Counted from the stretch's first letter, positions 1,552-23,956 are shown. The stretch is 32,000 bases of DNA from Demequinaceae bacterium (GCA_965250005.1 OZ252279.1:1-32000); one strand, 5' to 3'. Notes: generated from the letters alone by a model not told the origin. Numbers and translations are program-made.

Positions 1552-1570
1552 CCTCCGTGCGCCTGAAGCG

Positions 1571-3566: not shown

Positions 3567-4445
3567 CTAGCTAGGTAGCCGCAGCATGCCTTCTTGGGCA
3601 ATGGTCGCCACCAGGCGACCGTCCTCGGCAAACACCCACGCTCCCGTGAGCCCGCGCCCGCCCTGGGCAGTGGGCGTGTCTTGGACGTACAGGAGCCACT
3701 CGTCAGCGCGCGCCGGACGATGCCACCACATGGCGTGATCGAGACTCGCGTAGTTCATTCCCTCCGTGGTCCACGCGACGCCGTGACGGCGCAGCAGCGG
3801 CTCAAGCATCACTTGGTCGCAGCCGAACGCGATCAGGGCACGATGCGTCAGCTCGTCCACCTCAAGCGGCTGGCGCACCCGCATCCAGGCCGTCTGGTAC
3901 GCCTTGGGGGAGCTGTCGGGCTTGAGGAAGACCGAGCCCTCCACGTGCCGCACGTCGAACGGACCGCGCTCCAGCCAGAAGTCCGCGGCGGGATGGCCCA
4001 CGAACGGCCGCATCAAGTCCACGCCGGACGTCACGGACTCGGGCCCCGGCACCTCGGGCATGGCCACGGAGTGCTCCGGCCCGTCCTGCTCCACCTGAAA
4101 CGACGCGATCATCGACAGGATGGGCTTGCCGTTCTGAATCGCGTGCGCACGACGAGCGGAGAATGAGCTGCCGTCGCGTAGTTCTTCGACCTCGAACTCG
4201 ATGGGCTTGGAGGCATCCCCGGCGCGCAAGAAGTACGCGTGCATCGAGTGGGCGTGCCGGTCGTCGGCGACCGTCCTGCCGGTCGCGATGAGCGCCTGGC
4301 CGAGCACCTGCCCGCCAAACACGCGCCCGCCGGGCATGGGTAGCGATGACCCCGCGAAGGCTGTGTCGCCCGTCTGCTCGAGATCGAGCGCCTTGAGGCC
4401 GGATGCGACCGCGTCGGTGGCCCAGGGATCATCGACCTTGGGCAT
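3567..4445 (-). CDS. tesB: Acyl-CoA thioesterase II
   Basis: 292-aa double hot-dog TesB-like sequence (GGQVLGQAL..., HSMHAYFLR.GD...PI.FEVE.LRDG.SF..RR..A.Q.G..I...). Confidence 0.9.
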   Translation of the reverse strand: MPKVDDPWATDAVASGLKALDLEQTGDTAFAGSSLPMPGGRVFGGQVLGQALIATGRTVADDRHAHSMHAYFLRAGDASKPIEFEVEELRDGSSFSARRAHAIQNGKPILSMIASFQVEQDGPEHSVAMPEVPGPESVTSGVDLMRPFVGHPAADFWLERGPFDVRHVEGSVFLKPDSSPKAYQTAWMRVRQPLEVDELTHRALIAFGCDQVMLEPLLRRHGVAWTTEGMNYASLDHAMWWHRPARADEWLLYVQDTPTAQGGRGLTGAWVFAEDGRLVATIAQEGMLRLPS

Positions 4446-4613: not shown

Positions 4614-5363
4614 ATGAACGAACCGACGACGGCCGACGACCCGTTCTTGATCAACCCTCGTGAGAAGGCAGCGCCCGAGCGCAAGCGCGCGCCGGGAGTC
4701 AAAGCGCCTCGCCTCGTGGGCGACACCGTGGATTTGCGAGGGACCGGCTCTCCGCAAGAGAGCTATCCCAATGCGAAACCGATGCCCACGCCGGTCGCGG
4801 CTCCGGCCCCAGCTCCAGCGCCAGTCGTGCCAACTCCGGTCCCGGGGGGCCCACCTGCGCCTCCACTCGCAGCCGCGCCTAGCGCGGCAACGGCTCCGGG
4901 TCCGAACCCATCCGCCTACGCGGCCCCGCCGCCGCAGGCGTATCCGCCGCACCAGACTGCGCAGTGGAAGCGCAGTTGGAAGACCACCTGGGCCCGATGG
5001 GGCGTTGCGGCGGGCATCACGTGGGTGCTCTCAGGGATCTTCGGCTTTGTTCTTGCATCGGCGTTCGTTACGGGGCAGTCGTACGAGGCCCTGGGCTACT
5101 CCGTTGGCGAGCTCTCTCTCGGCTACGCTCTCTACGTGTTCTTTTGGGGCCACTGGTACGACCACGTGATCGCGGGCGCAGGCAAGTGGGGCGCCTTCGC
5201 GGTGACCGTGGGTACGGCCGGATTTCTATCCCTGTTCGGCTCGCTGGGCGTCAGTTGGCTCCCTCCCGGCGTCTACTTCCTGCTCGCAATCGCGATCGCG
5301 TCCATCACGTTCCTTACCGTGACGGCGGTTTTCAAGTCGTCCTTCAAGCCACCGACTGCCTAG
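4614..5363 (+). CDS. Membrane protein: Pro/Ala-rich N-terminal region plus one divergent four-TM WWxDH module (member A)
   Basis: N-terminal low-complexity P/A tract. C-terminal module QWKRSWKTTWARW...VFFWGHWYDHVIAGAGKWGAF...VFKSSFKPP. Confidence 0.7.
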   Translation: MNEPTTADDPFLINPREKAAPERKRAPGVKAPRLVGDTVDLRGTGSPQESYPNAKPMPTPVAAPAPAPAPVVPTPVPGGPPAPPLAAAPSAATAPGPNPSAYAAPPPQAYPPHQTAQWKRSWKTTWARWGVAAGITWVLSGIFGFVLASAFVTGQSYEALGYSVGELSLGYALYVFFWGHWYDHVIAGAGKWGAFAVTVGTAGFLSLFGSLGVSWLPPGVYFLLAIAIASITFLTVTAVFKSSFKPPTA

Positions 5364-5366
5364 CGC

Positions 5367-6062
5367 GTGTTCTTCCTCAAAGCTCTCGCGACATCACTGC
5401 TGACGGTCATCCGGGCAGGAAAGTGGCAGCGCCGCTGGAGCGTCACCGCGTGGAGGTTCGGGATCGCCACGATTCCCGGCGCGATGGTCGCGGTCGTTAT
5501 TCGCGTGTCCGTGCCGGGTGGAGGTGAGGATCCGTCCTGGGGCAATGCCGCCACCACCTACCTGTGGCTCGCCCTCCCGGTGCTGATATACGGGATCCTC
5601 GGCGGAGCTGCGGTGGACCACTATGTCGCGCGCGTCGGCGGGCTGCTTACCTGGCTCTCGCACCTGTTGTGGTCGCTCATGGTCGGCACAGTGGTGGTTG
5701 GTGGCTGGTTCTTGTGGTCGGCGTCCTCGGGCAACGTGACCGACGCGGCGACCGCCTGGCTTGCACTGAGCTGGCTCCCGCTTGCGGCGACCATCGTCCA
5801 CCTTTTCGCGGGCTTCGTGCCTGGCTCCTTCCCCAAGCCCAAGGCGGTGCGCGAGAACATCAAGGACGTGCGCGACCTGTATCGCAAGCTGCGCGCCAAG
5901 GGCGCGAACTGGCGTGATGACCGCGATGGCCGGCGCGACCGCAGGCTTGAGGCCAAGAGCGAGCGGCTAGAGAAACGCCGGGAGCTCAAGCAACGGCCGG
6001 CCGCACTACCGCCCGGACGCTCGCGGCCCGAGCGGCTGAACCGCGAACCGGACCAGCACTAG
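5367..6062 (+). CDS. Membrane protein with one divergent four-TM module and a highly charged C-terminal tail (member B)
   Basis: GTG start 4 nt after the member A stop. [14 protein letters not shown]...[21 protein letters not shown]...[10 protein letters not shown], then an Arg/Lys/Asp/Glu-rich tail. Confidence 0.65.
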
Positions 6063-6499
6063 GCGCTCGGCGTCTCCTCGAAGGTATTGACCATCGAGTG
6101 CGCCGCGCGCTCCATGTAGTCCATGAGCGTGGTCCGATGCATGGGCGCGAGGTCCACGGAGTTGACGGCGGCGCGCATGTGCGAGATCCACCGGTCGCGC
6201 GCATCGGGATTGACCCGGAACGGCTGGTGGCGCATCCGCAGCCGCGGGTGACCGCGCTGCTCGCCGTACGTTTGCGGCCCGCCCCAGTACTGTTCGAGGA
6301 ACATGCGCAGCCGGTCGGCGGCGCCGTCCAGCGACTGCTCGGGGTACAAGGGGCGCAGCACCGGATCCTCTGCGACGCGGGAGTAAAACTCCGCGACCAT
6401 CGTCTGGAATGTCTCGTGCCCACCGACAACCTCGTAGAACGACGCCGCCCGGTTGAAGTCCGCAGGGTTCTGCTCCTGAAACGGCTCGGCCTCGCTCAC
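6059..6499 (-). CDS. glbO: Group II truncated haemoglobin (trHbO)
   Basis: [57 protein letters not shown] motif string. GTG start overlaps the upstream TGA (GTGA at 6496-6499). Confidence 0.85.
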
Positions 6500-7533
6500 G
6501 GCTTGGCCTTGGGCTTTGCCTTCGCGGCCGCCTTGGCGCGCCTGGCTTTGCCTCCGACGGATTTGGCGGGCGACGGGTCGTCGTTGTACTCGGTGAACAT
6601 CCGGTTGTCGGGAGCCGCCAGGCGGATGCCCCGCTCCGTGAACTGCCGGCGAATGTGCCAGCGGATAGCGCGCTGCACCGACCACTGCTGGCCGGGCTGC
6701 ACCTGCACCAGCACGCGTAGCAGGATGGCGTCGGCGGCGAGGCTCTCGACACCGGGAATCTCGGGATCCCCGAGCACGTGCGGGGATACATTGCCCTCAA
6801 GAAGTGCGTCCTGCGCGGCCTTCATCATGGCGGCGCGCGCGTCCTCCACGCTCTCGCGGTAGTCCACGCGAACCTCGACCATGGCTCGCGACCACACCCG
6901 CGACATGTTGCCCACCCGGGCGATCTCGCCGTTTGGCACGAACCAGACGGTGCCGTCCAGGTTGCGGATGCGCGTGGAGCGCAAGCCGACCTCTTCGACC
7001 GTGCCGGTCACGCCGCCCAGGTCCACGTTGTCGCCCACACCGTACTGGTCCTCGATCAGCATGAACATCCCGCTCAGCAGGTCCTTGACCAGTGACTGCG
7101 CACCAAAGCCAAACGCGACGCCGACGATGCCCGCGGACGCGACCAGCGGTGTCACCGGGATTCCCACTTGTGCGAGCACCATGACCACGGCGATCAGGGT
7201 GATGGTTACTCCCAGCGCGCTGCGCAGCACCACACCAATGGTCTTGGCGCGCATGGAGCGTCGCTCGTCTTCAAGCTGCTTCTGGAGGGTCTGCCGCGGT
7301 GCGCCCAGGCGGGTCTTGCGCAGCACTTTGCGCGCGCGTCGCTCGCCCTTGTCGAAGCCGTCCTCGATGCCCTGAACCACCTTGCGGATGGCTACGCGGC
7401 CTACGAAGAACAGGAGGAAGGCGGCGAGCACCGTGCCGACAACTTCTAGCGTGGTTTGGCTCGCACCCCCAAGCCAATCGACGATGTTGTCCCACCATTC
7501 GGCGGCGGTGTCCTGAATTGCGGCATTTTGCAT
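6496..7533 (-). CDS. Mechanosensitive ion channel family protein (MscS-like) with Lys/Ala-rich C-terminus
   Basis: TM helices followed by the MscS core ([48 protein letters not shown]...VPNG). Confidence 0.9.
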
Positions 7534-7579
7534 GCGACCAGCCTACGGGTTGGGAGGCATCCTCTGGCAAGATGTATGC

Positions 7580-9817
7580 GTGACCGACATCAAGGCAGAT
7601 GTGACAGCCGTGGGGGACGACCCGCAGGCGCGTGTCAATGCGCACTCGGCCGCCCTGATCCGGCTTGCTGCGGCGCACGGTGTCTACGCCGAGTACACGT
7701 CGTGGGACGGCGAGGAGCGACGGTCGTCAAGCAAGGCGATCCGCGCCGCACTCGCCGCCATGGGCGTTGCCGCTGGGGACGATGCGCAGTGCCAGCGCGA
7801 ACTAGACACGCTCGAGGACAAGAAGTGGCTGACAACCGTTCCACCGGTCACCGTTGTGCGCGAGGGCGAGGCCGCCGAGGTTCACGTTCACGCCGACCAC
7901 AGCGCGCTACCGGACGTGAACCTGGTTCTCGAGAATGGCGTCACGATCGCGCCGGCGCAACTCAACAAGCACGTCGAGCCGCGCGAAGTTGAGGGCCAGA
8001 CGATCACTCGCGCGACCTTCCAGCTGCCCTCAGACTTGCCTCTTGGCTGGCACACCATCGAGGTGAACCTCGACGATGACGTGGCCCGCGGCGTCGTCGT
8101 AGTGACGCCCGACCAGCTCGAGGTCCCTGCAGCAGTACGCAACAAGCGGCCGTGGGGCTTCATGACCCAGCTGTATTCGGTGCGGTCCGAGCGCTCATGG
8201 GGCCTAGGCGACCTGGCTGACCTGCGCGACCTGTGCACGCTGAGCGCTTCGCGCGCAGGCGCAGACTTTGTGCTGGTCAACCCGCTGCACGCCGCGGAGC
8301 CCGTCCCGCCGCTGACGGCCTCGCCATACCTGCCGTCGTCGCGCCAGTTCGTCAACCCGCTCTACATTCGCGTCGAGGACATCCCCGAAGTCGCCTACAT
8401 GACGTCCGCTGAACGCGCTGTGCTCGAGTGGAAGGCAGAGGCGCTGCACGCCGCTTCGACCAGCGCCGCGCTGCTTGACCGCGACGCCGCGTGGGAAGCA
8501 AAGATTGAGGCGCTCGAAGAAGTGTTCAAGATGCCGCGCAACGCGGCGCGCGAGGCGCAGTTCCGCCACTACGTGAAGCGCAGGGGCTGGGCGCTCGAGG
8601 ACTTCGCAACGTGGTGCGCGATCGCCGAGGAGCGCTCCGGTACTACGGTCCTCACCGATTCTCCTGGCGGCCCAAACGACGGAGCGAGCCCGGACGACCG
8701 GTGGCCCGACGTGCTCGCCACTCCGGTAGCGCCCGGCGTCACTGCATTCCGCGAGATTCACGCCAAGCGCGTGGAGTTCTTCGCATGGCTGCAGTGGCTC
8801 GCCGACGAGCAGCGGTCCGCGGTGCAAGTCGCGGCGCGCCGTGCCGGCATGAGCATCGGCGTTATCGGCGATCTTGCCGTGGGCGTGCACCCCACGGGTG
8901 CGGATGCGTGGGCGCTCGGCCACGCCCTGGTCCGCGGCGTCTCCGTTGGCGCACCCCCGGACTTGTTTAACCAGCAGGGCCAGAACTGGTCGCAGCCGCC
9001 GTGGCACCCGCGCGCGCTTGAGGACGCGGCGTACTTGCCGTTTCGCGAGATGGTGCGCGCCTCGCTGCGTCACGTCGGCGCGGTCAGGGTGGACCACATC
9101 ATGGGGCTGTTCCGTCTCTGGTGGGTGCCCGAGGGCCACTCCCCAGACGACGGCGTGTACGTGCGTTACGACCATGAGGCGATGGTGGGCATCCTCGCGC
9201 TCGAAGCGCACCGCGCCGGGGCAATGGTTATCGGCGAGGATCTGGGAACCGTCGAACCATGGGTCTCCGGATATCTGAAGGAGCGCGGCATTCTTGGCAC
9301 CACTGTGCTGTGGTTCGAGAACGACGCTCACGGCAACTTTAGTGACCCCGCGATGCACCGCGCGGAGGCGCTCGCGACCATCACCACGCACGATCACCCG
9401 ACCACCGCGAGCTTCCTGTCAGGCGAGCACGTGGACGTGCGAAACAAGCTCGGCCTGCTGGTCGAGCCTTACCGGAACGTTCGCGAGGACGCGGCCCGCG
9501 ACCGCACCAAGGCCGTCGCGTTCCTCGAGCACCACGGGTTCGCGGGCAACGGCGTGAACGGTGACGTTGACCCGGAGCAGGACCTGCTGATAGGCCTGCA
9601 CCGCGCGGTGATGGCCTCTCCCGCGCTGCTCACGGGAATCTCACTCGCCGACGCCGTGGGTGAGCGCAAGGCCCAGAACCAGCCCGGCACGGACCGCGAG
9701 TATCCCAACTGGCGCATCCCGCTGACCGACGCGCGCGGCGGCGTAGTGATGCTGGACAATCTGTTCGACCACCCGCGCATGCAGGCGCTGGTCGCGGCGC
9801 TCAACGAGTCGCGGTAG
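7580..9817 (+). CDS. malQ: 4-alpha-glucanotransferase (amylomaltase)
   Basis: Long actinobacterial MalQ. N-terminal LIRLAAAHGV.AEYTSW.G. GH77 core (RSWG.GDL.DL, NPLHA, PY.PSSR.F.NPLYI, DH.MGLFRLWW.P, IGEDLGTV). Start is uncertain: GTG 7580, GTG 7601 or ATG 7532. Confidence 0.9.
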   Translation: MTDIKADVTAVGDDPQARVNAHSAALIRLAAAHGVYAEYTSWDGEERRSSSKAIRAALAAMGVAAGDDAQCQRELDTLEDKKWLTTVPPVTVVREGEAAEVHVHADHSALPDVNLVLENGVTIAPAQLNKHVEPREVEGQTITRATFQLPSDLPLGWHTIEVNLDDDVARGVVVVTPDQLEVPAAVRNKRPWGFMTQLYSVRSERSWGLGDLADLRDLCTLSASRAGADFVLVNPLHAAEPVPPLTASPYLPSSRQFVNPLYIRVEDIPEVAYMTSAERAVLEWKAEALHAASTSAALLDRDAAWEAKIEALEEVFKMPRNAAREAQFRHYVKRRGWALEDFATWCAIAEERSGTTVLTDSPGGPNDGASPDDRWPDVLATPVAPGVTAFREIHAKRVEFFAWLQWLADEQRSAVQVAARRAGMSIGVIGDLAVGVHPTGADAWALGHALVRGVSVGAPPDLFNQQGQNWSQPPWHPRALEDAAYLPFREMVRASLRHVGAVRVDHIMGLFRLWWVPEGHSPDDGVYVRYDHEAMVGILALEAHRAGAMVIGEDLGTVEPWVSGYLKERGILGTTVLWFENDAHGNFSDPAMHRAEALATITTHDHPTTASFLSGEHVDVRNKLGLLVEPYRNVREDAARDRTKAVAFLEHHGFAGNGVNGDVDPEQDLLIGLHRAVMASPALLTGISLADAVGERKAQNQPGTDREYPNWRIPLTDARGGVVMLDNLFDHPRMQALVAALNESR

Positions 9818-9822
9818 GTCTC

Positions 9823-9890
9823 TCGCAGCTCGCAGCTCGCAGCTCGCAGCTCGCGGATGGCAGCTCGCGGATGGCGGATGGCGGATCGCG
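9823..9890. repeat. Compound microsatellite: (TCGCAGC)x4 followed by interleaved CGGATGG units
   Basis: Begins 6 nt after the malQ stop. Four perfect heptamers at 9823-9850, then tcgcggatgg/cagctcgcggatgg/cggatgg/cggatcgcgg. Confidence 0.9.
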
Positions 9891-9956
9891 GTTTTCGCCG
9901 AGCGCGCGGTGCCGACCTGCGCTAGCATTGTGTGCGAGCCACGGAGGAGGGACGAC

Positions 9957-10457
9957 ATGACGCAATCACAGATTGCCGACACTGAGCGCACAACTGGGAC
10001 ATGGAAACGTGCTCCCTATGTCACATTTGTGCGGACGTCCATCGCGCTTGGTGTTCAGATCGCTCTAATGGCGGTTGTCTTGTTCGTTGCTGTTTCTTTG
10101 CCTGACGCCGGTGACACAGGGTACCCCCTGCTCGTTGGGATGGCTGCGTTCCTCTTCGCAGGCGGAGCGGTCTTGTACGCGATTGGTGTCTACTGGTGGA
10201 CGGACCACGCGTTTGCCCGGTTCGGTCGGCTGCGCAGCCTCCTCGCCCACATGGGAATCGTAATTGCTCTCACCCTGGTGTACGCCATTGGGGCCGCGCT
10301 AGCAGGTGACGACGTCTTGGCCTCGATAGGCCTCTGGTCCGACCCTGCCTACGTCTGGGGCTTTGGTGGCACCGGCAGTCTCTTGGTCGCGGTCGGCACG
10401 GCGACGGCAGGCCTCAAGCGCGAGTCTTTCGCTCCGAGCATTGACGAGCCAATCTAG
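9957..10457 (+). CDS. Four-TM WWxDH-module membrane protein (member C)
   Basis: GGAGGAGGG RBS before ATG 9957. GTWKRAPYVTFVR...VYWWTDHAFARFGRLRSLLAH...GLKRESFAP. Confidence 0.75.
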   Translation: MTQSQIADTERTTGTWKRAPYVTFVRTSIALGVQIALMAVVLFVAVSLPDAGDTGYPLLVGMAAFLFAGGAVLYAIGVYWWTDHAFARFGRLRSLLAHMGIVIALTLVYAIGAALAGDDVLASIGLWSDPAYVWGFGGTGSLLVAVGTATAGLKRESFAPSIDEPI

Positions 10458-10648
10458 AGGTGAGTGCCCACCTAGTTGGGTCGCAGCAGCCAGTCGAGCC
10501 AGCCTCGGCCGATCATTAGCCGGGCGCCCAGCGGGATGGCGACCGCTACGGCGAACATTCAGATGCGGTCGGTGTAGTTGCGACGCATGGTCGTTTCAGT
10601 CTATGTCGGCTAGCCGTCGGACGGCCTGAAGGTGTTGAAGACCAACGG

Positions 10649-11644
10649 CTAGGCGATCGCGAGGGCCTCGTCGATTTGGTGCCGGAGCGCCCGTGCGTCG
10701 CGTCGCGCCTGGCCAGGCGAGTGGCCGTACGCGCGGCTGAAGGCTCGCGAAAATGATGCCTCGGACTGGTACCCGCATCGCGCTGCGACCGTGGCGACCG
10801 TGTCAGCCGTGTCCTCGAGCGTCTGACGCGCCACCTGCATGCGCCACTCCGTCACGTACTGCATGGGGCTTTGGTGCATGAAGTCGCTGAACCGCTCGGA
10901 GAAGGAAGAGCGGGACATTTGCGCCTCGCGGGCCAGGGACTCAACTGTCCACGCGCCGCCGGGAGCATCCGCGACTGCCCGCAGGGCACGCCCCAGTTGC
11001 TCGTCGCGGAGTGCGGCGAGCCACCCATCGCGGGCCTCGGGGGCGCGCTCGATCCAGTGCCGCAGCGCCTGGATCACCAGCACGTCGGCAAGACGGGTGA
11101 TGATCGTCTCGCCGCCCGGGCGCAGCTCGCCCGCCTCGCGCGCGATGAAGCGCACCGTGCTGTGCAACCAGCTTGCCGCGTCCTCGTCGAAGCTGTCGAC
11201 CGTGATGAGGTTCGGCAGTTGGTCCACGAGCCGTTGGCCCGTGACGTGGTCAAACCGTATGACGCCGTACAGGCCCTGGGCGGCCTCGCCGCCGCCACCC
11301 GCGCGCGCGACTTCGTAGCGGTCGCTGATTGCCTCTACGTCGAGGTCCGCGAGCGCGGTCACGGGTGCGTCGGGCCCGGAGGTGAACTGGTGTGCAACGC
11401 CGTGCGGGACGAGCGTCAGGCTGCCGGGCTCGAGCGCGACCGGCGCCGAGTCCCCGACGGTGATCCACGCGCGGCCCGCGGTCATCGCGAGGAAGCTGAG
11501 CGTTCCGGGAATGGAGGGGATGCCGATTCCCCACGGCGCAGTAAGTTCGCTGCGGCAGTAGAGCGCGCCGGTGAGGCGGAGGCGATGGAGCGCGATCCCG
11601 AGCGGGTCGGTTGCGGAAGGGGCAGTGGGGCTGGGGGAGGCCAT
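10649..11644 (-). CDS. AraC-family transcriptional regulator (N-terminal cupin-like sensor plus C-terminal HTH)
   Basis: C-terminal AraC HTH string (WTVESLAREAQMSRSSFSERF....SPMQYVTEWRMQ.A...L......V..VA..CGYQSEASFSRAF.R.YG.SPG..RR). Confidence 0.85.
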   Translation of the reverse strand: MASPSPTAPSATDPLGIALHRLRLTGALYCRSELTAPWGIGIPSIPGTLSFLAMTAGRAWITVGDSAPVALEPGSLTLVPHGVAHQFTSGPDAPVTALADLDVEAISDRYEVARAGGGGEAAQGLYGVIRFDHVTGQRLVDQLPNLITVDSFDEDAASWLHSTVRFIAREAGELRPGGETIITRLADVLVIQALRHWIERAPEARDGWLAALRDEQLGRALRAVADAPGGAWTVESLAREAQMSRSSFSERFSDFMHQSPMQYVTEWRMQVARQTLEDTADTVATVAARCGYQSEASFSRAFSRAYGHSPGQARRDARALRHQIDEALAIA

Positions 11645-11795
11645 GTCCTCATTATCGCTCCAAACTATCCCATCCGTCTACAGAATTGGACGAACGGCAA
11701 GGAATCATGGATTCTAGGCGATTGTGCGTCCAGCCCCGACGAGCCAGGCTTGTCGCAGCGGCGCACAGCGTGCCGCATCGACGAAAGGTAGTCCC

Positions 11796-12386
11796 ATGCA
11801 GAAGTCCCGCCTCATCACCCCGATCCTCAGCATTACCGCTGTGGTAGGCGCGTTCGTCGGGATCGCACTGGTATTCGCGCCCGTGTGGTTCCAAGGCACG
11901 TCCGAGATCGCTACGACGGACAACCCGAGCGCGCCAAGCAAGTTTCGCCGGCGCCCCCTCGTCACGCTGACGCGCTGGCTTGTTGGCCTGGGTGCCGTTG
12001 GCCTGGGCTACGGCACGATCGTTGTCGTGTGGCGGGCTATGGGCTCCCGCGACTACGACAACGACAACGACTTTCTCTGGTCTGTGACGGTCGACTTTTC
12101 TGCTCTGGCGGGCCTCTACGTGCTCCTCATCGTTTGGTGGGTCGACCACCTGCTCGCGAAGCGCGGCCGGCGTCGGGCACTCGTCGGCCACTGCGTGATC
12201 GCGGCCGTGATGGGGATCCCGTTGCTGACGCTTGGGTCCCGCGGCGAGGGCGTCGTCGTCTACGTTCTCGTCCTCGCGACCACGGTAGGTGCCGTGCTGT
12301 TGGCGGGGCTCATCCCCGGTTCCTTTGCTCGGGAGACGGCAGCCAGCAGGGCGAGCGGCGAAACCACCTCGGGCAAGTCGCGCTAG
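11796..12386 (+). CDS. WWxDH-module membrane protein with an extra N-terminal TM helix (member D)
   Basis: GAAAGG before ATG 11796. SKFRRRPLVTLTRWLVGLG...IVWWVDHLLAKRGRRRALVGH...GLIPGSFAR. Closest to the second module of member E. Confidence 0.75.
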   Translation: MQKSRLITPILSITAVVGAFVGIALVFAPVWFQGTSEIATTDNPSAPSKFRRRPLVTLTRWLVGLGAVGLGYGTIVVVWRAMGSRDYDNDNDFLWSVTVDFSALAGLYVLLIVWWVDHLLAKRGRRRALVGHCVIAAVMGIPLLTLGSRGEGVVVYVLVLATTVGAVLLAGLIPGSFARETAASRASGETTSGKSR

Positions 12387-12411
12387 GCGTGTTTGTCCGC
12401 CTGCGGCGACG

Positions 12412-12640
12412 CTAGCTGGGCCAGCAGTCCGTCGGCTTGAAGGCGTTCGCGTCCACTGCTCAAGCGGCGAGCGCCCGGCGCACGCCGTCGCGGCCGTCGA
12501 TCACCAGGCGGCGCAGTGCGTCGTGGGCGTCTGTTTTGTCGGCGAGCCACGCGTCGGCGCGATGCTGGAGATCCGCCACGCGCACCGATTGCAGCACGCG
12601 GCTCAAGCCGTCATTATTCACCGCCGCTGCGGCGAGTTCT
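12412..12640 (-). pseudogene. Fragment homologous to the C-terminus of aminopeptidase N (pepN paralogue remnant)
   Basis: Minus-strand translation ...HRADAWLADKTDAHDALRRLVIDGRDGVRRALAA*AVDANAFKPTDCWPS* aligns with the pepN C-terminus ...KHTDQWLASNPEESPALRRLLIEARDGVRRSLVAQQADANRYGATDCWPV*. In-frame TGA at 12460-12462. No N-terminal catalytic part is present. Confidence 0.75.
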
Positions 12641-12737
12641 TTGCACGGACTCGCAACCAACCGTGACACGGTCTGAAACGTTTGACATGTACACCAACAC
12701 GGCGTGGCGTTGATGCCGTGGCAACCGGGGGATAGCA

Positions 12738-13643
12738 ATGGCCAACAAGCAAACACGGACACTTGCCAGCGGATGGGAGCGAAGCCGCCGCGCGTCCGTG
12801 CGGCGCGCACTCGTCGCGGTCATCGGGATACCGGTCGCGTTCATGGAGTGGGGGCTCATCTTTGCTGCGGCCGGAGGGGATCCCTACGCAACCCGCAATG
12901 ACGACTGGCGCCCGGGGATCATCGGCATCCTGTTCGGCCTCGCGTATCTGGCCGTGGTGGGCTGGTGGCTCGACCACCGCATCGCCTGGCGAGGCGGCGT
13001 GGTGACTGTCGGAGTGCACGTTGCCGCTGCGGGCCTGCTGAGCACACCGTGGCTGTTCATGGCGCCGGACGGAGGCGCGCAGGTCGCGGTGAACATGCTG
13101 GGCATCGCCACAGCGACGATTCTTGCCGCGACGGTCCGGGGATCGTTTCCCGCGCGCGGCGCCGGCAACGCGATGGAGGCGGGCGGTTCTGACGAAGTTG
13201 CCGCAACTTGGCGCCGCCCCCGGCTCACGACATTTAAGCGGTGGCTCGCTGGACTGGTTGGCGCCGGCATCGGCTTTGGATTGACGCTCGTGGTGTGGCA
13301 GTCCGTCAACGATCGATACTCAGAGGCCTTCCTCTTCGATCCGGTGGCGATCTACGCAGTTGGCGCCGGCGTCTATTTGTTGCTCGCTTCGTGGTGGGTC
13401 GACCATCTGGCCGCGCGCCTTGGCCGGTGGCGCGCGTTCCTTGTGCACGTCATCATCGCGGCGGTCCTCGCCGCGCCGTTCGCCGCCCAGGGCCGGTACG
13501 GCGAGGGTGTGATCCTTTACGTGTGCGTGGTCGCCACCGCAGTGGCCGCTGTCTTGGTCGCGGGGCGCGTGCCCGGGTCGTTTGCGTCCTCAGAGGCCCA
13601 GGCTGACGGGACGGCTGCGCGTGCTCCAGACCGCCCCTGGTAG
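12738..13643 (+). CDS. Two-module (8-TM) WWxDH membrane protein (member E)
   Basis: Module 1: SGWERSRRASVRR...VGWWLDHRIAWRGG...TVRGSFPAR. Module 2: ATWRRPRLTTFKRW...ASWWVDHLAARLGRWRAFLVH...GRVPGSFAS. Confidence 0.8.
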   Translation: MANKQTRTLASGWERSRRASVRRALVAVIGIPVAFMEWGLIFAAAGGDPYATRNDDWRPGIIGILFGLAYLAVVGWWLDHRIAWRGGVVTVGVHVAAAGLLSTPWLFMAPDGGAQVAVNMLGIATATILAATVRGSFPARGAGNAMEAGGSDEVAATWRRPRLTTFKRWLAGLVGAGIGFGLTLVVWQSVNDRYSEAFLFDPVAIYAVGAGVYLLLASWWVDHLAARLGRWRAFLVHVIIAAVLAAPFAAQGRYGEGVILYVCVVATAVAAVLVAGRVPGSFASSEAQADGTAARAPDRPW

Positions 13644-14173
13644 CGGGCCGAAAATCTCGCCGCGCGCCGTGCAACTCTCGCCGCAAACATGAGAGTGGGA
13701 TCGCGAAGAGGGGATCAAATGCCACGTCATCCAATGACGTATCGCAAAAATCCAAGGAGTCGGTGCTGGCGGCTGAAGTGTGGAGGCCTTCCGCAACGGT
13801 GACGCTCATGCGAAGTGTGATTGCGCTCTCAACAACAGTCGTCGTGCTCGTGCTCGTGCTCGTGCTCGCGGCTGTGGTCGGTCCTGCCCTGGAATCAGAT
13901 ATCGTCGGTGACGAAACAGGTTCCTTCTGGATGTTTGCAATATTCGCTGCGGGCGGGGCGTCGCTATACGCTGCTGTTGTCTACTGGTGGACGGACTACC
14001 TTTTTGCGCGCCTGGGGCGCGGGTACAGTTTGCTGGCTCACTTGGGAGCAATCGCTCTCATCACTACCGTGTTCGCGTTCGTTCAATTGAATGTCCGCGC
14101 CAACGACTTCAGGCCTTTCGACTTCTGAACCGCCCTGGGTTTTGTTCCGATCTCTATTTGAGAGGATCGGATC

Positions 14174-14491
14174 ATGCCAAAGAGATATCCAGAGGAGTTC
14201 AAGGCCCGCGCGGTCAGGCTCGTTGACGAAGCGGTCGGCGAGGCAGGTGCCAGCGAAACGGATGCCATGTCGAGGGTTGCTACCCGTTTGGGGGTGTCAA
14301 CGGAGTCTGTTAGACGGTGGCGTCGCCAGGCTCGTGTTGATTCGGGCATCGAGCGGGGCGTGACGAGTGAGGAGTCGACGGAGATGCGGCGGCTACGTCG
14401 CGAGAACACTGAGTTGAGGCGTGCAAACGAAATATTGCGGACTGCGTCAGCGTTTTTTGCAGCGGAACTCGACCGCCCCACGACGAAATGA
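14174..14491 (+). CDS. IS3-family transposase OrfA (HTH)
   Basis: MPKRYPEEFKARAVRLV... and leucine-zipper-like RRLRRENTELRRANEILRTASAFFAAELD, typical of IS3 OrfA. Confidence 0.9.
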   Translation: MPKRYPEEFKARAVRLVDEAVGEAGASETDAMSRVATRLGVSTESVRRWRRQARVDSGIERGVTSEESTEMRRLRRENTELRRANEILRTASAFFAAELDRPTTK

Positions 14492-15399
14492 TTCGATACA
14501 TCGATGAGTATCGGGATCAATTCGGGGTTGAGTTCATTTGTCGCACACTTGCTGCGACACCCGGTGGGTTCATTACCTCGCGCGGCTATCGGGCCGCGAA
14601 GTTTCGGCCTCGCTCCGACAGATCAATTCGGGACGAGCAGGTCGGTGAGGCCCTGACCCAAATTCATGCTGCTAACTATTCGGTTTACGGGGTGCGTAAA
14701 ATGTATGCGGCGATGCGTAGGGCCGGCTGGGATGTGGGCCGCGACCAGGTGGCCCGCCTCATGCGCAAGAGCCATTTGCGTGGGGTTCGCCGTGGCAAGA
14801 GAGTCTTCACGACCGTTACGGACCCTGCCTCGATGCGACCAGCTGACTTAGTGGAGCGGCGCTTCACCGCTAGTGGTCCGCGTGAGCTTTGGGTCGCGGA
14901 CATCACCTATGTGGCCACCTGGAATGGCTTCGCCTACACCGCTTTCGTCACCGACGTCTTCAGTCGCAAAATCGTCGGCTGGGCAGTATCCAGTTCGTTA
15001 ACTACCCAGTCGTTGCCGTTACAGGCACTCGAGATGGCTGCCTTCATCAACGACACTGGGGAAGGTCTCATCCATCACAGCGATATGGGCACGCAATATG
15101 TGTCCCTGGCTTACTCCGACCGCCTCACCGACCTCGGCATCACCGCTTCTGTCGGATCCCGTGGAGACAGTTACGACAACGCCCTAGCCGAGTCCGTCAA
15201 CGCCGCCTACAAAGCCGAACTGATTCGTGCTCGAAAGCCCTGGCGAACCATCGAGCAAGTCGAGTTCGCAACCCTGGAATGGGTCCACTGGTTCAACACC
15301 GCCCGACTCCACGAAAACCTCGGCCACCGAACCCCAGCAGAAATCGAAACCGAGCACTACGCTCAAACCCAGAGGGCATCAGCCCTCACAACCACCTAG
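14488..15399 (+). CDS. IS3-family transposase OrfB (DDE integrase core), expressed by -1 frameshift from orfA
   Basis: orfB is in the -1 frame relative to orfA. A T6 run followed by G at 14453-14459 lies in the overlap. DDE residues are present in WVADITY, HHSDMGTQY and YDNALAES. Confidence 0.9.
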   Translation: MIRYIDEYRDQFGVEFICRTLAATPGGFITSRGYRAAKFRPRSDRSIRDEQVGEALTQIHAANYSVYGVRKMYAAMRRAGWDVGRDQVARLMRKSHLRGVRRGKRVFTTVTDPASMRPADLVERRFTASGPRELWVADITYVATWNGFAYTAFVTDVFSRKIVGWAVSSSLTTQSLPLQALEMAAFINDTGEGLIHHSDMGTQYVSLAYSDRLTDLGITASVGSRGDSYDNALAESVNAAYKAELIRARKPWRTIEQVEFATLEWVHWFNTARLHENLGHRTPAEIETEHYAQTQRASALTTT

Positions 15400-15558
15400 G
15401 AACGAAACCCAGGGCGGTTCATTCTGGTATGTGACGGGGCCCGTTTGGGTTCTTGGCGGAGTGTGTTGCGTGCTGATTGCAATTGGCACGACAGCGGCGG
15501 GGCTCATGCGTGGATCGTTTGCGCCCCGCAGCCCGTCGTTGCGTGGGAATTCAGCGAA

Positions 15559-18228
15559 CTAGACCGGCCAGCAGTCGGTCGCGCCGTAGCGGTTGGCGTC
15601 CGCCTGCTGGGCAACCAAGGAGCGCCGCACGCCGTCGCGGGCCTCGATGAGCAAGCGGCGCAGCGCGGGGGACTCCTCCGGGTTGGATGCCAGCCACTGG
15701 TCCGTGTGCTTCATGATCCCGTCCGGCTCGGAAGCCGCTCCGGCGCCCACGCGGCGACCCGTCAGGGCGGCCGGGAACAGTCCCTCGATCAGGTTCTGCG
15801 CCATTTCTAGCGTCTTGGTATCCCACAGGCGGGCGACCGCGTCAAAGTAGGGTTCCACAAAGGGCTCGATCAGCGCGAGATTGTGAACGCGGTGGAAGCC
15901 CATGATGGTTGCGGCCTGCAACGCATTTGGGAGATCCTCTCCCGCGGCGGCGTCGATGAGCGCAGCCCACGCCGCCGTCTTGGCCTCGGGCGTCGGAATG
16001 GCAGCGCGCGCTATGGTCGCGAAGCGCTCGCCGGTGGCGGTGTTGTCTTCGGCCAGGCGTTCGGCAATCTGGGGCTCCCCAGCCCGGCCGCCAGCGACCA
16101 GCGACACCAGCAGCTCCCAGCCAAGGTCCGTGTCGATTTCGAGGCCCTCGAACTTGGCGGTGCCGTCCAGCAGGGAAGCGACCGCGTCCAGGTGCGTGGG
16201 CGTCTCGGCCCGGCCCGCGAACGCCTTGACCAACTGATACTGGCTGTCGCCACCGGCCTCGGCCTCGCCCGCGAGACTCCAGAGCGCGTCGCCCGTTTTT
16301 CCTTGGACGTGCTCCGCCGCAACGGGCTGGACGTACAGGTCCAGCGACGTGCTCATCTGGCGCAACAGCATCAGCACCACGGTGGATTCGGATTCAGCGC
16401 CGATGTTGTTCAGCACCAGGTCGATGAAGTCGCGTCCGGCCATCTCGCCGTCGCGGGTCATGTCCCACGCGGCGGCGAAGACCATCGAGCGGGGCAAGGA
16501 GTCTTCGAACGCATCCACGTGCTCGATGGCGGTCTTGAGCGAGGCGTCGTCTAGGCGGATCTTGCCGTACGCGAGGTCTTCGTCATTCACCAGCAGCAAG
16601 TCCGGCATGGGTTTGCCCGCCACGTCCGCGACGGCGGTGGATGCTCCATCGATGTCTGTCTCCACATGCCAGGACCGCTTCATGACCGCGCTGGCACCTT
16701 CGCCGGTGACGTCGTAGCCGCCGATGCCCATGCGGTGCGGGCGCTGCGTTGGCCAGTCGTCGGGTGCCTCCTGGGTGACGGTGAAGGCCGCGATGGTGCC
16801 GTCGTCGGCGGTCTGAATCGAAGGGCGCAGCGTGGTGACGCCGGCCTTCTCCAGCCAGAGCCCGCTCCATTCGTCGAGGTCGCGGCCGGAGGTCTTCTCG
16901 AGCTCCACGAGCAGGTCGCGCAGGGTGGTGTTGCCGCGGGCGTGCTTGCGGAAGTACTCGGCCACTCCAGCGAAGAATGCGTCCTGGCCGACCCATGCCA
17001 CCAGTTGCTTGAGCACGGACGCGCCCTTGGCGTACGTGATGCCGTCAAAGTTGACCTCGACGTCCTCGAGGTCGTTGATGGTGGCGACGATAGGGTGCGT
17101 GGACGGCAGCTGGTCCTGGCGGTACGCCCACGATTTCTCGAGTGTGTTGAACGTGGTCCACGCACTGGGGCCTTGCATGGTCTGGGCGGCGCAGAGCGTG
17201 GAGACGTACTCCGCAAAGGATTCGTTGAGCCACAGGTCGTTCCACCACTTCATGGTGACCAGGTCACCAAACCACATGTGTGCGAGCTCATGGAGGATGG
17301 TCACGGTGCGGCGCTCAACGCGGGCTTGCGCCACCTTGGAGCGGAACACGTAGTCCTCGAGGAACGTCACGGCGCCGGCGTTCTCCATGGCCCCCGCGTT
17401 GAACTCCGGCACAAAGAGCTGGTCGTACTTGGGGAACGGGTATGCCATATCGAACAGGTTCTCGTAGTACGTGAACCCGGCCTGGGTGATGTCCAGGATG
17501 ACGTCCGCGTCCAAGTGCTCGGCGAGGCCCTTGCGGCAGTAGACGTCCGCGCCGATGCGGCCCTTGCTGCTCAAGACGCTGCCCTCGACCTTGTGGTACG
17601 GACCGGCGATGATGGCGGTCACGTAGCAGGGGAGCACGCCGGTGGGCTCGAACGCCCAGGTGCTGACTCCGCGCGTCTCGCCGGCGAGCGCGATGGTCGC
17701 GCCCTCAACGGGGACGGCCTCCGGGCTGAGGGAGTTGCTCACCACGTGCCAGTGCGCGGGCGCGGTGACGGTGAACTGGAAGGTGGCCTTGAGGTCGGGC
17801 TGCTCGAACACCGCGAACACGCGGCGGGTGTCGGCCACCTCGAACTGGCTGTACAGGTAGATCTCGTCGTCCTCGGGGTCCACGAACCGGTGGAGGCCCT
17901 CGCCGGTGTTCATGTACGCGCAGTCGGCGGTGACCACCAGCACGTTGGAGTGCTCGAGCGCGGGAAGCTCGATGCGGCTGTCCTTGAAGTGGGTTGCCGG
18001 GTCCAGCTCGGTGCCATTGAGGACGATGCTGTGGACGCGCGGGGCGATCAGGTCGATGAACGTGGACTCGCCTTTGGTGCCGCCGAACCGCACCGTGGTG
18101 GTAGAGCGGAACGTGGGCGTCTTGTCCGTCAACCCCGTGGTGAGGTCGAGATGCACCTCGTAGGAGTCGGACTGAACGGTGGCGGCGCGGGCCTCGGCCT
18201 CGGCGCGGGTCAGGTTCTCTGCGGGCAT
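15559..18228 (-). CDS. pepN: Aminopeptidase N (M1 family)
   Basis: GAMEN motif (FNAGAMENAG) and zinc site HELAHMWFGDLVT...WLNESFAEY. N-terminus MPAENLTRAEAEARA. ATG 18228 preferred, upstream GTG 18249 also possible. Confidence 0.93.
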   Translation of the reverse strand: MPAENLTRAEAEARAATVQSDSYEVHLDLTTGLTDKTPTFRSTTTVRFGGTKGESTFIDLIAPRVHSIVLNGTELDPATHFKDSRIELPALEHSNVLVVTADCAYMNTGEGLHRFVDPEDDEIYLYSQFEVADTRRVFAVFEQPDLKATFQFTVTAPAHWHVVSNSLSPEAVPVEGATIALAGETRGVSTWAFEPTGVLPCYVTAIIAGPYHKVEGSVLSSKGRIGADVYCRKGLAEHLDADVILDITQAGFTYYENLFDMAYPFPKYDQLFVPEFNAGAMENAGAVTFLEDYVFRSKVAQARVERRTVTILHELAHMWFGDLVTMKWWNDLWLNESFAEYVSTLCAAQTMQGPSAWTTFNTLEKSWAYRQDQLPSTHPIVATINDLEDVEVNFDGITYAKGASVLKQLVAWVGQDAFFAGVAEYFRKHARGNTTLRDLLVELEKTSGRDLDEWSGLWLEKAGVTTLRPSIQTADDGTIAAFTVTQEAPDDWPTQRPHRMGIGGYDVTGEGASAVMKRSWHVETDIDGASTAVADVAGKPMPDLLLVNDEDLAYGKIRLDDASLKTAIEHVDAFEDSLPRSMVFAAAWDMTRDGEMAGRDFIDLVLNNIGAESESTVVLMLLRQMSTSLDLYVQPVAAEHVQGKTGDALWSLAGEAEAGGDSQYQLVKAFAGRAETPTHLDAVASLLDGTAKFEGLEIDTDLGWELLVSLVAGGRAGEPQIAERLAEDNTATGERFATIARAAIPTPEAKTAAWAALIDAAAGEDLPNALQAATIMGFHRVHNLALIEPFVEPYFDAVARLWDTKTLEMAQNLIEGLFPAALTGRRVGAGAASEPDGIMKHTDQWLASNPEESPALRRLLIEARDGVRRSLVAQQADANRYGATDCWPV

Positions 18229-18425
18229 GGTTCGAGTCTGCCACGGCACTATGGTTCGTATGGGACGTGTCGGCAGAGAGTGGCTAGTGCAGGTTGGTCG
18301 CCATTTCGGATACGTGCGCTAACGCGGGTTCGATACGGTCACTGTGGACGACAGCGAGATAATGAGCCTCGGCGGTCCGTGGTTGATCACCGGTCGCGGT
18401 CCGCGATCATCCGAGTCAGGAACGG

Positions 18426-19376
18426 CTACGAGTTCAACCAAGCCCATGTTGATCTGATTCGCCTCGTTGGAGGGAAGGAACCTCCATTGCAGATAGGGAG
18501 AACCACAAACCGATCAATTCTGTCGAACTTCTCAGCGTCGTCATCGCCCGGCGTCGGCGTTTCCTTTGGAAGCCACGGCAATGGCCGGGCTGAATCGCCT
18601 CGGGTTTGGTGGAGGGCGGGTTCTCCCAGGAGCGGTTGCTCGTGGGGTGTGTTCTCACGGTAGTACAGGTCTTTCTTCTCGATTGGTGTGAGGTATCCAA
18701 TCGAGGAGTGGAGGCGGTTGTCGTTGAACCGGTGGACCCACGACAGCGTCGCGAGTTCGAGTTCGTCGGTCGTGCGGAATGGGCCATCGATTTTCACGCA
18801 CTCGTTCTTGTAGAGTCCGACGACGGACTCAGCGAGGGCGTCGAGTGGCAGCTCGGTGGGCATTCGGTTCGTGGTGCGCCAGCCGACGATTCGCCGGGAG
18901 AACACGTCGGTCACGAACGCAGTGGACGCCATCCCAGACCAGGTCGGCACGTAGGTGAAGTCCACGACCCACAGCTCATTGGGACATTCGGCACGGAAGT
19001 TGCGCTTCACGTGATCCGGTGCTCGGTTTGCTGCCGGATCGGGACGGGTCGTGACGAACTGTTTGCCGCGACGCACCCCGCGAAGCCCCTGAGCCCGCAT
19101 GAGACGCTCCACCGTGCAGCGGGCGGTCACGACACCGTCACGCTTGAGTAGGCGCCACACCTTTCGCGCACCCGAGATCCCGCGACCCTTCGTGCGGTCC
19201 CAGAAGACCCGCTCAATGTGTTCGCGCAACTCTTGATCACGCACCGTCCGCTGCGAGATGGCACGCGTTTTGAACGCGTAGTAAGTAGACGGGGCGATCT
19301 TGACTCCGTGCTCGGTGAGCACCCGGCAGATCGGCTCGACCCCGAAACGAACACGATGCTCGTCGATGAAGTTCAC
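18426..19376 (-). pseudogene. IS3-family transposase OrfB, internally deleted, reading out through the IS end
   Basis: Aligned with the other IS3 OrfB, about 50 aa are missing between LPLDAL and AESVVGLYK, including the HHSD.G.QY block with the second catalytic Asp. There is no stop codon inside the element. The ORF runs through the terminal IR (18591-18616) to 18426. Confidence 0.8.
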
Positions 19377-20723: not shown

Positions 20724-21935
20724 CTAGACCGTTGTGTCGTCCACCGGCGCGACCAGTGCTTCTACAATTTCGGTAGCGGCGTACTTCCGGCCGTAATTCC
20801 CCCCAGTCGTTTCGGCGAGATACCCGCGCGCAACGAACCGATCGATCGCTTTGCCAGCGGCGACCTTCGAGCACTCAAGTTCGCGCGCGACCGATGCGAC
20901 GGTGACGAACGGCGAGCGAACCAGGAGGTTTGGTAGCCGCAATTTGAGTGTCCCGCTTCGGCCTCCCTGCGCAGAAGCCACCATGGCTTCAGCAATCGTT
21001 TGGACGCGCGCAATGCGGTGCTCAACGTCGCGCGCGGACAGTCGCACGGCCTGCGCGAAGAACTCCACCCAGCCTGACCAGTCCCCGGTCGCGGACACTT
21101 CGTACAGGCGATCACGGTATTCCGAGTCGTGACGTTCGAGCCAGGGTGAGATTGTCAGAAGCGGTTCGCTCAGAATTCCGCGCTCGAGGAGGCTGCGGAC
21201 GACGAGCATGCGGCCGATGCGTCCGTTCCCGTCAGTGAACGGGTGGAGGGACTCAAATTGATAGTGCGCGAGTGCGGCATCAGCGATCGGGTCTCGCTCA
21301 GCGCGACCGGAAGCGTTTCCCCACTCCACCAGCGCGCCGAGTGCAGCTTCGAGACCGATTCCCGGGGGCATGGGCACAAAACGTGCATCCTCGACGGAGC
21401 TTGTTGGGCTGCCAATCGCGACTTGGGTGGTGCGAACTTTTCCTGGGTCGCGTTGGCCGGAAGGGGTGTCGCGGACCAGCATGCCTTGGAGTTCGCAGAT
21501 ATGGCCGAGTGTCAGTCGGCGTTTCTTCTTGGCGAGATCGAAGGCGTAGGTCGCTGCCTTCACGTAGTTGAAGATTTCGCGCATCGCGGTTGATGGCGCA
21601 TTTTTGTCATCGTAGTCGAGCGCGAGGACCTCTCGCATGGGCTCGAACGTACCTTCGAGCGCCGACGTCGACTGAGCCTCGCGTCGAAGCAGCGGCGCTG
21701 ACATCCAGCCACCAAGATCCTTGGCGCCGGCAATCTTAACGATTTGATCTAGGCGCGCCACGCCCTCGCGGGCGTCAGCAAGGGCCTTCCACGCCGACTG
21801 CGAGAGGTTCGGCATTGCGTCCAAGTTATGCGGTACGAAGCCTGCGTGTTGGTATGCGTTCCCACTTCGTGCGTCTGTACCCGCAATCGTCGTCAGATTT
21901 CCGGTCGGGCTCGTCTTCATCGTTTCTAGGTCCAC
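20724..21935 (-). CDS. Fic family protein (AMPylase-type, class II with N-terminal inhibitory motif, C-terminal wHTH)
   Basis: Canonical Fic motif HPFTDGNGRIGR. Upstream [ST]xxxE[GN] motif TSALEG. Length about 400 aa. Start is GTG 21935 or ATG 21920. Confidence 0.9.
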   Translation of the reverse strand: MDLETMKTSPTGNLTTIAGTDARSGNAYQHAGFVPHNLDAMPNLSQSAWKALADAREGVARLDQIVKIAGAKDLGGWMSAPLLRREAQSTSALEGTFEPMREVLALDYDDKNAPSTAMREIFNYVKAATYAFDLAKKKRRLTLGHICELQGMLVRDTPSGQRDPGKVRTTQVAIGSPTSSVEDARFVPMPPGIGLEAALGALVEWGNASGRAERDPIADAALAHYQFESLHPFTDGNGRIGRMLVVRSLLERGILSEPLLTISPWLERHDSEYRDRLYEVSATGDWSGWVEFFAQAVRLSARDVEHRIARVQTIAEAMVASAQGGRSGTLKLRLPNLLVRSPFVTVASVARELECSKVAAGKAIDRFVARGYLAETTGGNYGRKYAATEIVEALVAPVDDTTV

Positions 21936-23911: not shown

Positions 23912-23956
23912 GTCAGCGCAGGCGGCGGGCCCGGGGCTCGCTTGGCGGGGCAGGGC

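Follow-up and report, generated by a model that had tools for sequence, protein, structure and literature searches.

The zDHHC S-acyltransferases (PF01529) carry out their chemistry at the inner-leaflet interface, using acyl-CoA, and combine four transmembrane (TM) helices with cytoplasmic termini, an adjacent Asp-His on the cytoplasmic side after TM2, a Cys-rich zinc-finger loop with a catalytic Cys, and a short conserved motif after TM4 that packs back onto the site. The SMR/EmrE (PF00893) and Fluc/CrcB (PF02537) proteins, likewise of four TM helices and about 110-150 residues, occur as neighbouring gene pairs or tandem fusions, assemble in antiparallel fashion from subunits of dual or opposite topology, and hold their key residues within the membrane. 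Other points of reference are the CDP-alcohol phosphotransferases (PF01066), the PAP2 lipid phosphatases (PF01569) and, among the DUF-type families of Pfam, DUF202/YidH, which also comprises small polytopic membrane proteins of unknown function. Here we present an analysis of a 32,000-nucleotide stretch of DNA from a Demequinaceae bacterium (GCA_965250005.1 OZ252279.1:1-32000; hereafter the window), in which six genes, A to F, located between 4614 and 15562, carry seven copies of a four-helix membrane module that could be assigned to none of these families.

With the zDHHC enzymes the modules share the four helices (here from an AlphaFold2 (AF2) model), the cytoplasmic placement of both termini (here from charge bias), the adjacent Asp-His after TM2 and a short conserved motif after TM4. 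They differ in having neither a Cys-rich zinc-finger loop nor a catalytic Cys, the TM2-TM3 loop being only about 10 residues long with no conserved Cys; moreover, the candidate nucleophile is a Ser, no member matches PF01529, and the family is bacterial and confined to one clade. The comparison draws on the published zDHHC20 structure, and the resemblance is best described as an analogy of layout, not as membership. The size, the four helices, the adjacent paired genes and the tandem fusions recall SMR/EmrE and Fluc/CrcB and imply a working unit of two subunits; unlike those proteins, all 51 modules aligned here share an N-in/C-in topology, their conserved residues lie at the cytoplasmic edge, and neither Pfam family was matched. 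Where TM2 and TM3 meet on the cytoplasmic side, D-[H]-x-x-A-R-x-G is similar to the opening half of the CDP-alcohol phosphotransferase motif D-G-x2-A-R-x8-G-x3-D-x3-D, and the mixture of Arg, His, Asp and Ser is reminiscent of lipid-phosphate enzymes. However, the downstream D-x3-D is absent, no later Asp is conserved, helix count and size differ, and neither PF01066 nor PF01569 was matched by any of the 48 members scanned. A sub-threshold match of protein C to DUF202 (E 0.012, 16.5 bits against a cut-off of 23.4 bits) spans only 62 residues and was not repeated in the other 47 members.

A rare and unnamed family of four-helix modules

An earlier note on this DNA, made from the sequence alone, had described seven modules in six genes, and all seven were present at the positions given there, with every quoted peptide string found in the translations. 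Gene A (4614-5363, plus strand, 249 residues) carries its module at 4956-5360, after a Pro-rich cytoplasmic N-terminal tail containing DPF, and gene B (5367-6062, plus, 231 residues) carries one at 5412-5861, followed by a basic C-terminal tail. Gene C (9957-10457, plus, 166 residues) consists of one module only; gene D (11796-12386, plus, 196 residues) has its module at 11931-12350, with an additional hydrophobic segment N-terminal to it. Gene E (12738-13643, plus, 301 residues) is a tandem fusion of E1 (12762-13172) and E2 (13194-13613), both recognised as full-length profile domains (independent E-values 3.8e-25 and 1.2e-33). Gene F is split by an insertion sequence (IS) into a 5' part of 121 codons that runs through TM3 and has D-Y in place of D-H (13763-14125, plus), and a 3' part that encodes TM4 and the GSFAP motif and matches profile positions 119-151 (15425-15562, plus). 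All six are supported as real coding sequences by their in-frame GC content at third codon positions, which ranges from 0.66 to 0.83 (A 0.76, B 0.83).

Pairwise BLAST linked only C with F (E 8e-13) and D with E2 (BLASTP E 2e-30), at identities of 41-58% and 42%, respectively; other pairs were weak, and those of A and B with the other modules were not significant. This last result is what might be expected if the modules were alike only as hydrophobic helix bundles in a GC-rich genome, an explanation to which we nevertheless give negligible weight. In leave-one-out scoring with hidden Markov models (HMMs), the modules reached 26.1 (A), 30.1 (B), 61.9 (C), 89.0 (D), 50.1 (E1), 92.1 (E2) and 64.7 (F) bits, equivalent to z-scores of 12-44, against composition-preserving shuffles with a mean of about -3 and a maximum of 8.3 and reversed sequences that scored below zero. 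The profile of all seven modules (145 positions, with F entered as its IS-free sequence), searched exhaustively with HMMER against 1.84 billion representative proteins at a library-wide E-value of 1e-3 or less, gave just 49 matches, of which six are window proteins (five intact, plus F as its annotated fragment) and 43 come from elsewhere; nearly all span the full profile, with library-wide E-values down to 1e-85, and the motif positions are kept in the 43 proteins of other organisms. Leave-one-out scores, library-wide search and motif conservation together refute a compositional artefact, and the similarity proposed in the earlier note is significant beyond TM composition. Word-indexed searches were far less informative: C and E returned only themselves and a 48-sequence profile only four proteins, the word filter being swamped by TM composition. 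The weakest member is B, which fell to 9.3 bits when A and E1 were also excluded from training; its orthologues P0023 and P0040 keep the same motifs and have in common with it the N-terminus MF[FA]LKALA..SLL.V.RAGKW and the tail after G-S-F. The orthologue of A, P0008, occupies the same position in another organism's locus (L081).

No named family could be assigned, as the earlier note had also found. The six window proteins gave nothing above any cut-off in Pfam, NCBIfam, PADLOC or PHROGs, and in a Pfam scan of 48 individual members (E <= 0.01) none of its families was matched by more than two of them; P0015 and P0037 had no Pfam match. PADLOC gave zero matches and PHROGs three isolated ones (E 0.02-0.05). 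The best match of the profile among all PDB sequences had an E-value of 0.25, and Foldseek with the confident model of C gave best E-values of 1.9 in the PDB (TM ~0.25) and 0.55 in BFVD. Relatives are annotated in databases only as "hypothetical protein", one of them from a Demequinaceae metagenome-assembled genome (MAG), and a full-text literature search for the motif strings found nothing relevant. Four candidate identities were rejected: a holin (one member alone has a weak match to Phage_holin_3_6), a fragment of a major facilitator superfamily transporter (D scores 25.7 bits, below the cut-off), a defence system (no PADLOC match) and a dual-topology transporter (the charge bias is uniformly N-in/C-in). 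These results show the seven modules to be one genuine, rare and unnamed protein family, an inner-membrane protein of about 140 residues with four helices, which is confined to Demequinaceae-like Micrococcales and, apart from a small number of fixed positions, evolves fast. The family is new and absent from current annotation resources.

Conservation was counted over an alignment of 51 modules. TM1 is preceded and opened by W-x-R...T-x-x-R, TM2 ends in W-W-x-D-H-x-x-A-R-x-G, TM3 begins with a His, and G-S-F comes just after TM4; the Arg, Asp, His, His and Ser of most interest are R25, D83, H84, H97 and S157 in C. The Asp of D-H is invariant (100%) and the His is present in 96%, with Tyr in two modules, F and P0028; the Gly of A-R-x-G is found in 96%, the Ser of G-S-F in 92% (Ala in four) and its Phe in 90%. 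The D-H and GSF positions highlighted in the earlier note are thus conserved in the orthologues. The two Arg and the Thr of the TM1 motif are found in 80%, 90% and 78%, the second Trp of W-W in 76% and the His entering TM3 in 71% (Gln in six).

Topology was assessed by counting basic (K+R) and acidic (D+E) residues per segment over the 51 modules. The N-terminus has 193 basic and 34 acidic residues, loop 1 has 41 and 118, loop 2 has 85 and 51 (every one of the 51 being the invariant Asp), loop 3 has 18 and 87, and the C-terminus has 115 and 58; each of the seven window modules repeats this positive-inside pattern. The counts show a predicted N-in/C-in topology for every module, with the N-terminus, the TM2-TM3 loop and the C-terminus cytoplasmic. 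This uniform bias would place every conserved motif at the cytoplasmic edge of the membrane and would make E an eight-helix protein of two parallel modules. The AF2 model of C, built on a 48-sequence alignment (mean predicted local distance difference test score (pLDDT) 84.5, predicted template modelling score 0.74), has four long helices at residues 20-47, 56-89, 91-115 and 130-151, and the Ser-Phe segment after TM4 is also confident (block pLDDT 88). The four-TM layout of the earlier note needs one correction: D has its extra hydrophobic segment at residues 8-31, ahead of the W/F-R-R motif (within 11796-11900), and is not a plain four-TM protein if its annotated start is right; this segment is either a fifth helix, which would conflict with the N-in topology, or the product of a wrongly annotated start.

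Some members carry additional conserved parts. An N-terminal motif, [DEW]-x-D-P-F-x2-3-P, is present in A (4614-4720) and in the A-type proteins P0008, P0010, P0014, P0017, P0018, P0021, P0022 and P0027, with DPY in P0024; many A-type members also carry A-P-P-P-x-G-P-R-[FIV]-[DE]-G within an otherwise disordered, Pro-rich cytoplasmic tail, and the tail motif looks like a conserved docking peptide for a partner. In P0015 (about residues 330-527) and P0037 (about 160-309) there is an extra C-terminal multi-helix membrane domain that ends in AAY-x-IPWSR-x2-R-[DE]-KS and has no Pfam match; it may be a second unnamed module.

An ancestral pair beside tesB and a genome-specific expansion

Family-bearing loci were retrieved from 11 other organisms, and at eight of these the family gene or genes lie directly beside tesB, divergent from it and upstream of glbO, mscS and malQ, as A and B do in the window. 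There tesB, which encodes acyl-CoA thioesterase II (3567-4445, minus; Pfam 4HBT_3, 4HBT_3C and Acyl_CoA_thio), is followed by A and B, a truncated globin gene, glbO (6059-6496, minus), mscS (6496-7533, minus) and malQ (7532-9817, plus). The tesB site holds one, two or three modules: a single P0020 (L084-87), P0010 (L088), P0018 (L091/92) or P0012 (L093-95); the closely spaced pairs P0026 with P0030 (L090) and P0043 with P0014 (L096/97); the A-type P0008 with the B-type P0023 (L081); or P0007 followed by a two-module gene (L082/83). The exceptions to this location are P0015, which has two modules and the extra membrane domain, P0037, and P0019, which lies in an array of frame-shifted module fragments. 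At L098, which comes from the same metagenome sample as L081, overlapping open reading frames (ORFs) in different frames at 5048-6752 each match part of the module profile and lie among small unknown ORFs; these fragments are either a decayed tandem array or the result of assembly frame-shifts.

The A and B genes are in the same frame, separated by TAG-CGC ahead of the GTG of B (5361-5369), so that this GTG stands one codon past the stop of A, and at L081 (7998-8003), from the closest relative, the A-type stop directly abuts the B-type ATG. This adjacency of stop and start suggests translational coupling and possibly reflects an ancestral fusion or stop read-through. Tandem fusions are seen in E, in P0015 and in the second gene of L082/83.

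A synteny survey of 80 MalQ loci, in which the best match to the MalQ of the window was 58%, found no module within 10 kb on either side in Demequina, Cellulosimicrobium, Oerskovia, Actinotalea or Arthrobacter. The backbone tesB-glbO-mscS-malQ-pepN also occurs in Demequina, Cellulosimicrobium, Oerskovia and Actinotalea, where the gap between tesB and glbO has no room for a gene. On the contigs that bear the family, MalQ is most similar to the MalQ of Demequinaceae MAGs (57-70% identity). Together, the fixed tesB site, the Demequinaceae-like MalQ and the genomes with a family-less backbone argue for a clade-specific gene inherited at a fixed site, and show the A-B pair beside tesB to be the ancestral locus. 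It is this evolutionarily conserved part of the system that the earlier note had overlooked.

The other genes of the window tell a different story. In L084 malQ directly abuts pepN, and in other genomes the interval between them holds unrelated genes, so that C, the AraC-family regulator gene, D, E and F together occupy a variable gap, bounded in the window by malQ and by pepN (15559-18249, minus), whose stop is reached and overlapped by the convergent end of F. Just downstream of D lies a pseudogene fragment of the pepN 3' end (12412-12580, minus; about 55 codons), which is 51% identical to PepN residues 845-895 (tblastn E 8e-11); it reads ...ALRRLVIDGRDGVRRALAA, an in-frame stop, AVDANAFKPTDCWPS and a further stop, compared with ...ALRRLLIEARDGVRRSLVAQQADANRYGATDCWPV and a stop in PepN, and its DNA at 12419-12520 is 74% identical to 15566-15667. 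A junction of module and pepN end must therefore have been segmentally duplicated, and D/E2 and C/F retain 66-69% DNA similarity. A third pepN relic, considered at 10601-10642, was not supported by protein or DNA comparison. In a neighbour-joining tree, C and F group with P0019 and P0020, D and E2 with P0014, E1 with the first modules of P0015 and P0037, A with P0008, and B with P0023 and P0040, which indicates that the subtypes are older than the window genome, the tree being only indicative for sequences so short and divergent.

The earlier note had F split by an IS, and the element, of the IS3 family, spans 1,296 bp (14126-15421, plus), with 23-nt terminal inverted repeats that are 96% complementary, a TTC target-site duplication (14123-14125 and 15422-15424), an orfA with HTH_Tnp_1 and an orfB with rve/HTH_21, and a GC content of 0.586, below that of its surroundings. 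Removal of the element and one TTC copy yields an uninterrupted protein of 166 residues with a complete module, collinear with C; since excision restores an intact frame, the insertion is recent. The C-araC-D-E-F cluster is shown to be a genome-specific expansion in the malQ/pepN gap, formed partly by segmental duplication and, with F disrupted, already decaying.

Divergence is rapid. P0018 and P0012 are 55% identical, where the MalQ proteins of the same two genomes are 88% identical, and the ratio of nonsynonymous to synonymous substitution rates (dN/dS) is about 0.45 for P0018/P0012 against about 0.12 for MalQ, with 0.14-0.49 for other family pairs, all rough estimates because synonymous sites are near saturation. 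These values indicate purifying selection that is relaxed outside the motifs, and such fast divergence explains why ordinary searches miss the family; like the GC content at third codon positions, they also support the members as real genes.

The malQ/pepN interval is a hot spot of lineage-specific genes, which in different MAGs include a lipoprotein gene, ice-binding and sortase genes, and HEAT and cupredoxin genes. The order tesB-glbO-mscS-malQ-(variable gap)-pepN is kept across many Micrococcales genera (L001-L063, L081-L097).

A putative site at the cytoplasmic edge

The recurrence of stop/start-adjacent pairs and of tandem fusions leads us to infer a two-module unit. In the mechanism that we favour, two or more parallel modules would lie side by side, as in the A and B pair, in the fused E or in homodimers encoded by single-copy genes, and the Asp-His, the TM3 His, the Ser and the Arg residues would gather in a cytoplasm-facing, Arg-lined polar pocket at the inner-leaflet interface. 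Such a pocket might bind, or act chemically upon, an anionic or acyl ligand, be it a lipid head group, an acyl-CoA-type substrate or a metal-activated water, and would be an interfacial enzyme-like site and not a transmembrane pore; across the 51-module alignment no helix has a conserved polar residue at mid-membrane, which speaks against a conserved route for permeation. That the Asp-His and the further His make up a catalytic or metal site is plausible; these residues are the most conserved ones and all are placed on the predicted cytoplasmic face. Taken as a whole, the enzyme-like or ligand-site reading is our tentative preference, at somewhat less than an even chance.

Several observations weigh against it. 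The proposed proximity of the Asp, the two His, the Ser and the Arg derives from the predicted topology, and in the AF2 model of two-module E (mean pLDDT 68) all homologues aligned to E2, leaving E1 with no alignment depth. No structural neighbour or gene fusion points to an activity. The Ser is replaced by Ala in 4 of 51 modules and the His by Tyr in 2 of 51, one of them F, and the TM3 His is present in only 71%; such substitutions weaken a strict catalytic triad, unless some subunits are degenerate partners. Finally, the chromosomal backbone is older than the family and syntenic in family-less genomes, so that adjacency to tesB need not be functional and the neighbours are weak evidence of function.

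The same residues could have a purely structural role, locking the four-helix fold, for instance by a salt bridge between Asp and Arg and a hydrogen bond between His and Ser where the helices end, with function carried by variable cytoplasmic tails that recruit partners (the DPF/APPPxGPRF tail of the A-type, the basic amphipathic helix of the B-type). Tails are indeed kept within subtypes across genomes (DPF in the A-type; the B-type tail in B, P0023 and P0040), the invariant Asp has a potential partner in the 90%-conserved Arg at the start of TM1, and the rest of the protein evolves as fast as the P0018/P0012 comparison illustrates. Yet C, F, P0007 and P0020 are tail-less and keep every motif, and five or six near-invariant polar or aromatic positions on one face exceed the usual needs of folding a small bundle, so that we think a scaffold rather unlikely. 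Alternatively, as the earlier note suggested, the Asp-His and the TM3 His, doubled in a dimer, might serve at the cytoplasmic face as ligands of a divalent metal or as a proton relay, in a small metal sensor, transporter or chaperone, or a metal-dependent hydrolase in the style of PAQR/ceramidase. Each module offers three potential ligands at the same membrane depth, and the commonest replacement of the TM3 His is Gln (6/51), itself a potential ligand. A metal or proton site is unlikely in our estimate, however, as the membrane is not crossed by any conserved polar path, the modules have no His-rich loop, the neighbourhoods examined contain no metal-homeostasis gene or metal-sensing regulator, and 29% of the modules do without the TM3 His.

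Other readings start from the second cluster. Were the diverged paralogues C, D, E1, E2 and F an array of membrane proteins that confer immunity to toxins or bacteriocins directed at the membrane, their fast divergence, variable copy number and IS activity would be accounted for: the five modules, 25-45% identical, lie in a variable gap with IS elements, the dN/dS value well exceeds that of the housekeeping neighbour, and L098 holds a second array, of fragmented modules among small unknown ORFs. But no toxin, secretion or bacteriocin gene lies nearby, PADLOC and PHROGs gave no hits to support it, and the tesB-side core locus keeps to a fixed housekeeping position in eight loci, with one to three copies, and is stable in a way that an immunity island is not; we judge this explanation very improbable. 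Scarcely better founded is an AraC-controlled stress operon, in which the regulator, as a sensor of some small molecule or oxidant, would turn on D-E-F and possibly C, and which we consider quite improbable. The regulator gene itself (10649-11644, minus) is real and divergent from D, as the earlier note had it, across a 151-bp intergenic region that contains one promoter-like site for araC; its product matches Pfam Cupin_6 (1.9e-45) and HTH_18 (6.7e-23) and resembles RclR, though at 134 bits, far under the 400-bit equivalog cut-off, and its neighbours are family modules and not rclABC. The co-regulation hinted at in that note finds no support: an AraC neighbour occurs at none of the 11 other family loci; no operator-like repeat is common to the regions upstream of A, C, D, E and F, and promoter and terminator counts are at the level of shuffled sequence. 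The regulator is thus to be regarded as a neighbour only; control of D-E-F by AraC may occur in the window genome but is not a property of the family.

Returning to the enzyme-like or ligand site, its most specific form is also decidedly speculative: a new class of bacterial membrane enzymes, in which the Asp-His and the post-TM4 Ser (with the TM3 His) would form a triad-like site within two parallel four-helix modules and catalyse acyl or phosphoryl transfer, or hydrolysis, on inner-leaflet lipids or acyl-CoA, as a Cys-free prokaryotic counterpart of the DHHC layout, possibly in cooperation with the divergently transcribed TesB. If the cytoplasm-facing Asp-His/Ser/Arg cluster were an active site, it would represent a new minimal membrane-enzyme architecture of about 140 residues in a two-module unit, and would open a way into the lipid or acyl chemistry of the inner leaflet in an actinobacterial clade that has been little studied. 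Even with no function assigned, a family missed by annotation resources is defined by profile, motifs, topology and subtypes, its fixed chromosomal position beside tesB is established, and the expansion of the family in one genome by segmental duplication, followed by IS-mediated decay, is documented. The significance is moderate, since families of hypothetical membrane proteins confined to a single clade are commonplace and this one has so far no tie to a phenotype.

Other features of the window

The window DNA is high in GC (about 66%) and its gene order is actinobacterial, with an ABC-F ATPase gene (1570-3456) ahead of tesB. As called, malQ (plus, 7532) and mscS (minus, 7533) overlap at their starts in head-to-head orientation; for most MalQ homologues the alignment begins only at residue 27-42, so that the true malQ start is probably further downstream. 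Between malQ and C, directly upstream of C, 9811-9891 contains interleaved 7-nt tandem repeats (CTCGCAG, about 6.7 copies, and GCGGATG, about 5.6 copies), which may be a slippage-prone tract. Within the TM1 region of F, at 13842-13868, a perfect 6-nt repeat, TCGTGC, is present in 4.5 copies and encodes (VL)n.

A second IS3-family transposase gene (HTH_21, rve and rve_3, with the rve match truncated) lies just past pepN at 18426-19376 (minus), and its DNA is 68-77% identical to parts of the element that splits F. Both ends of pepN therefore have an IS3-family copy nearby: the one within F lies 137 bp from the 3' end, and the other about 180 bp past the 5' end. Further downstream are a gene for a Fic/DOC-domain protein (20724-21935, minus) and a bicupin gene (26212-27117, minus) with an internal 288-nt repeat of 70% identity; a 121-nt stretch of the bicupin gene shares 77% identity with 23799-23919, close to where a GDSL lipase gene begins.

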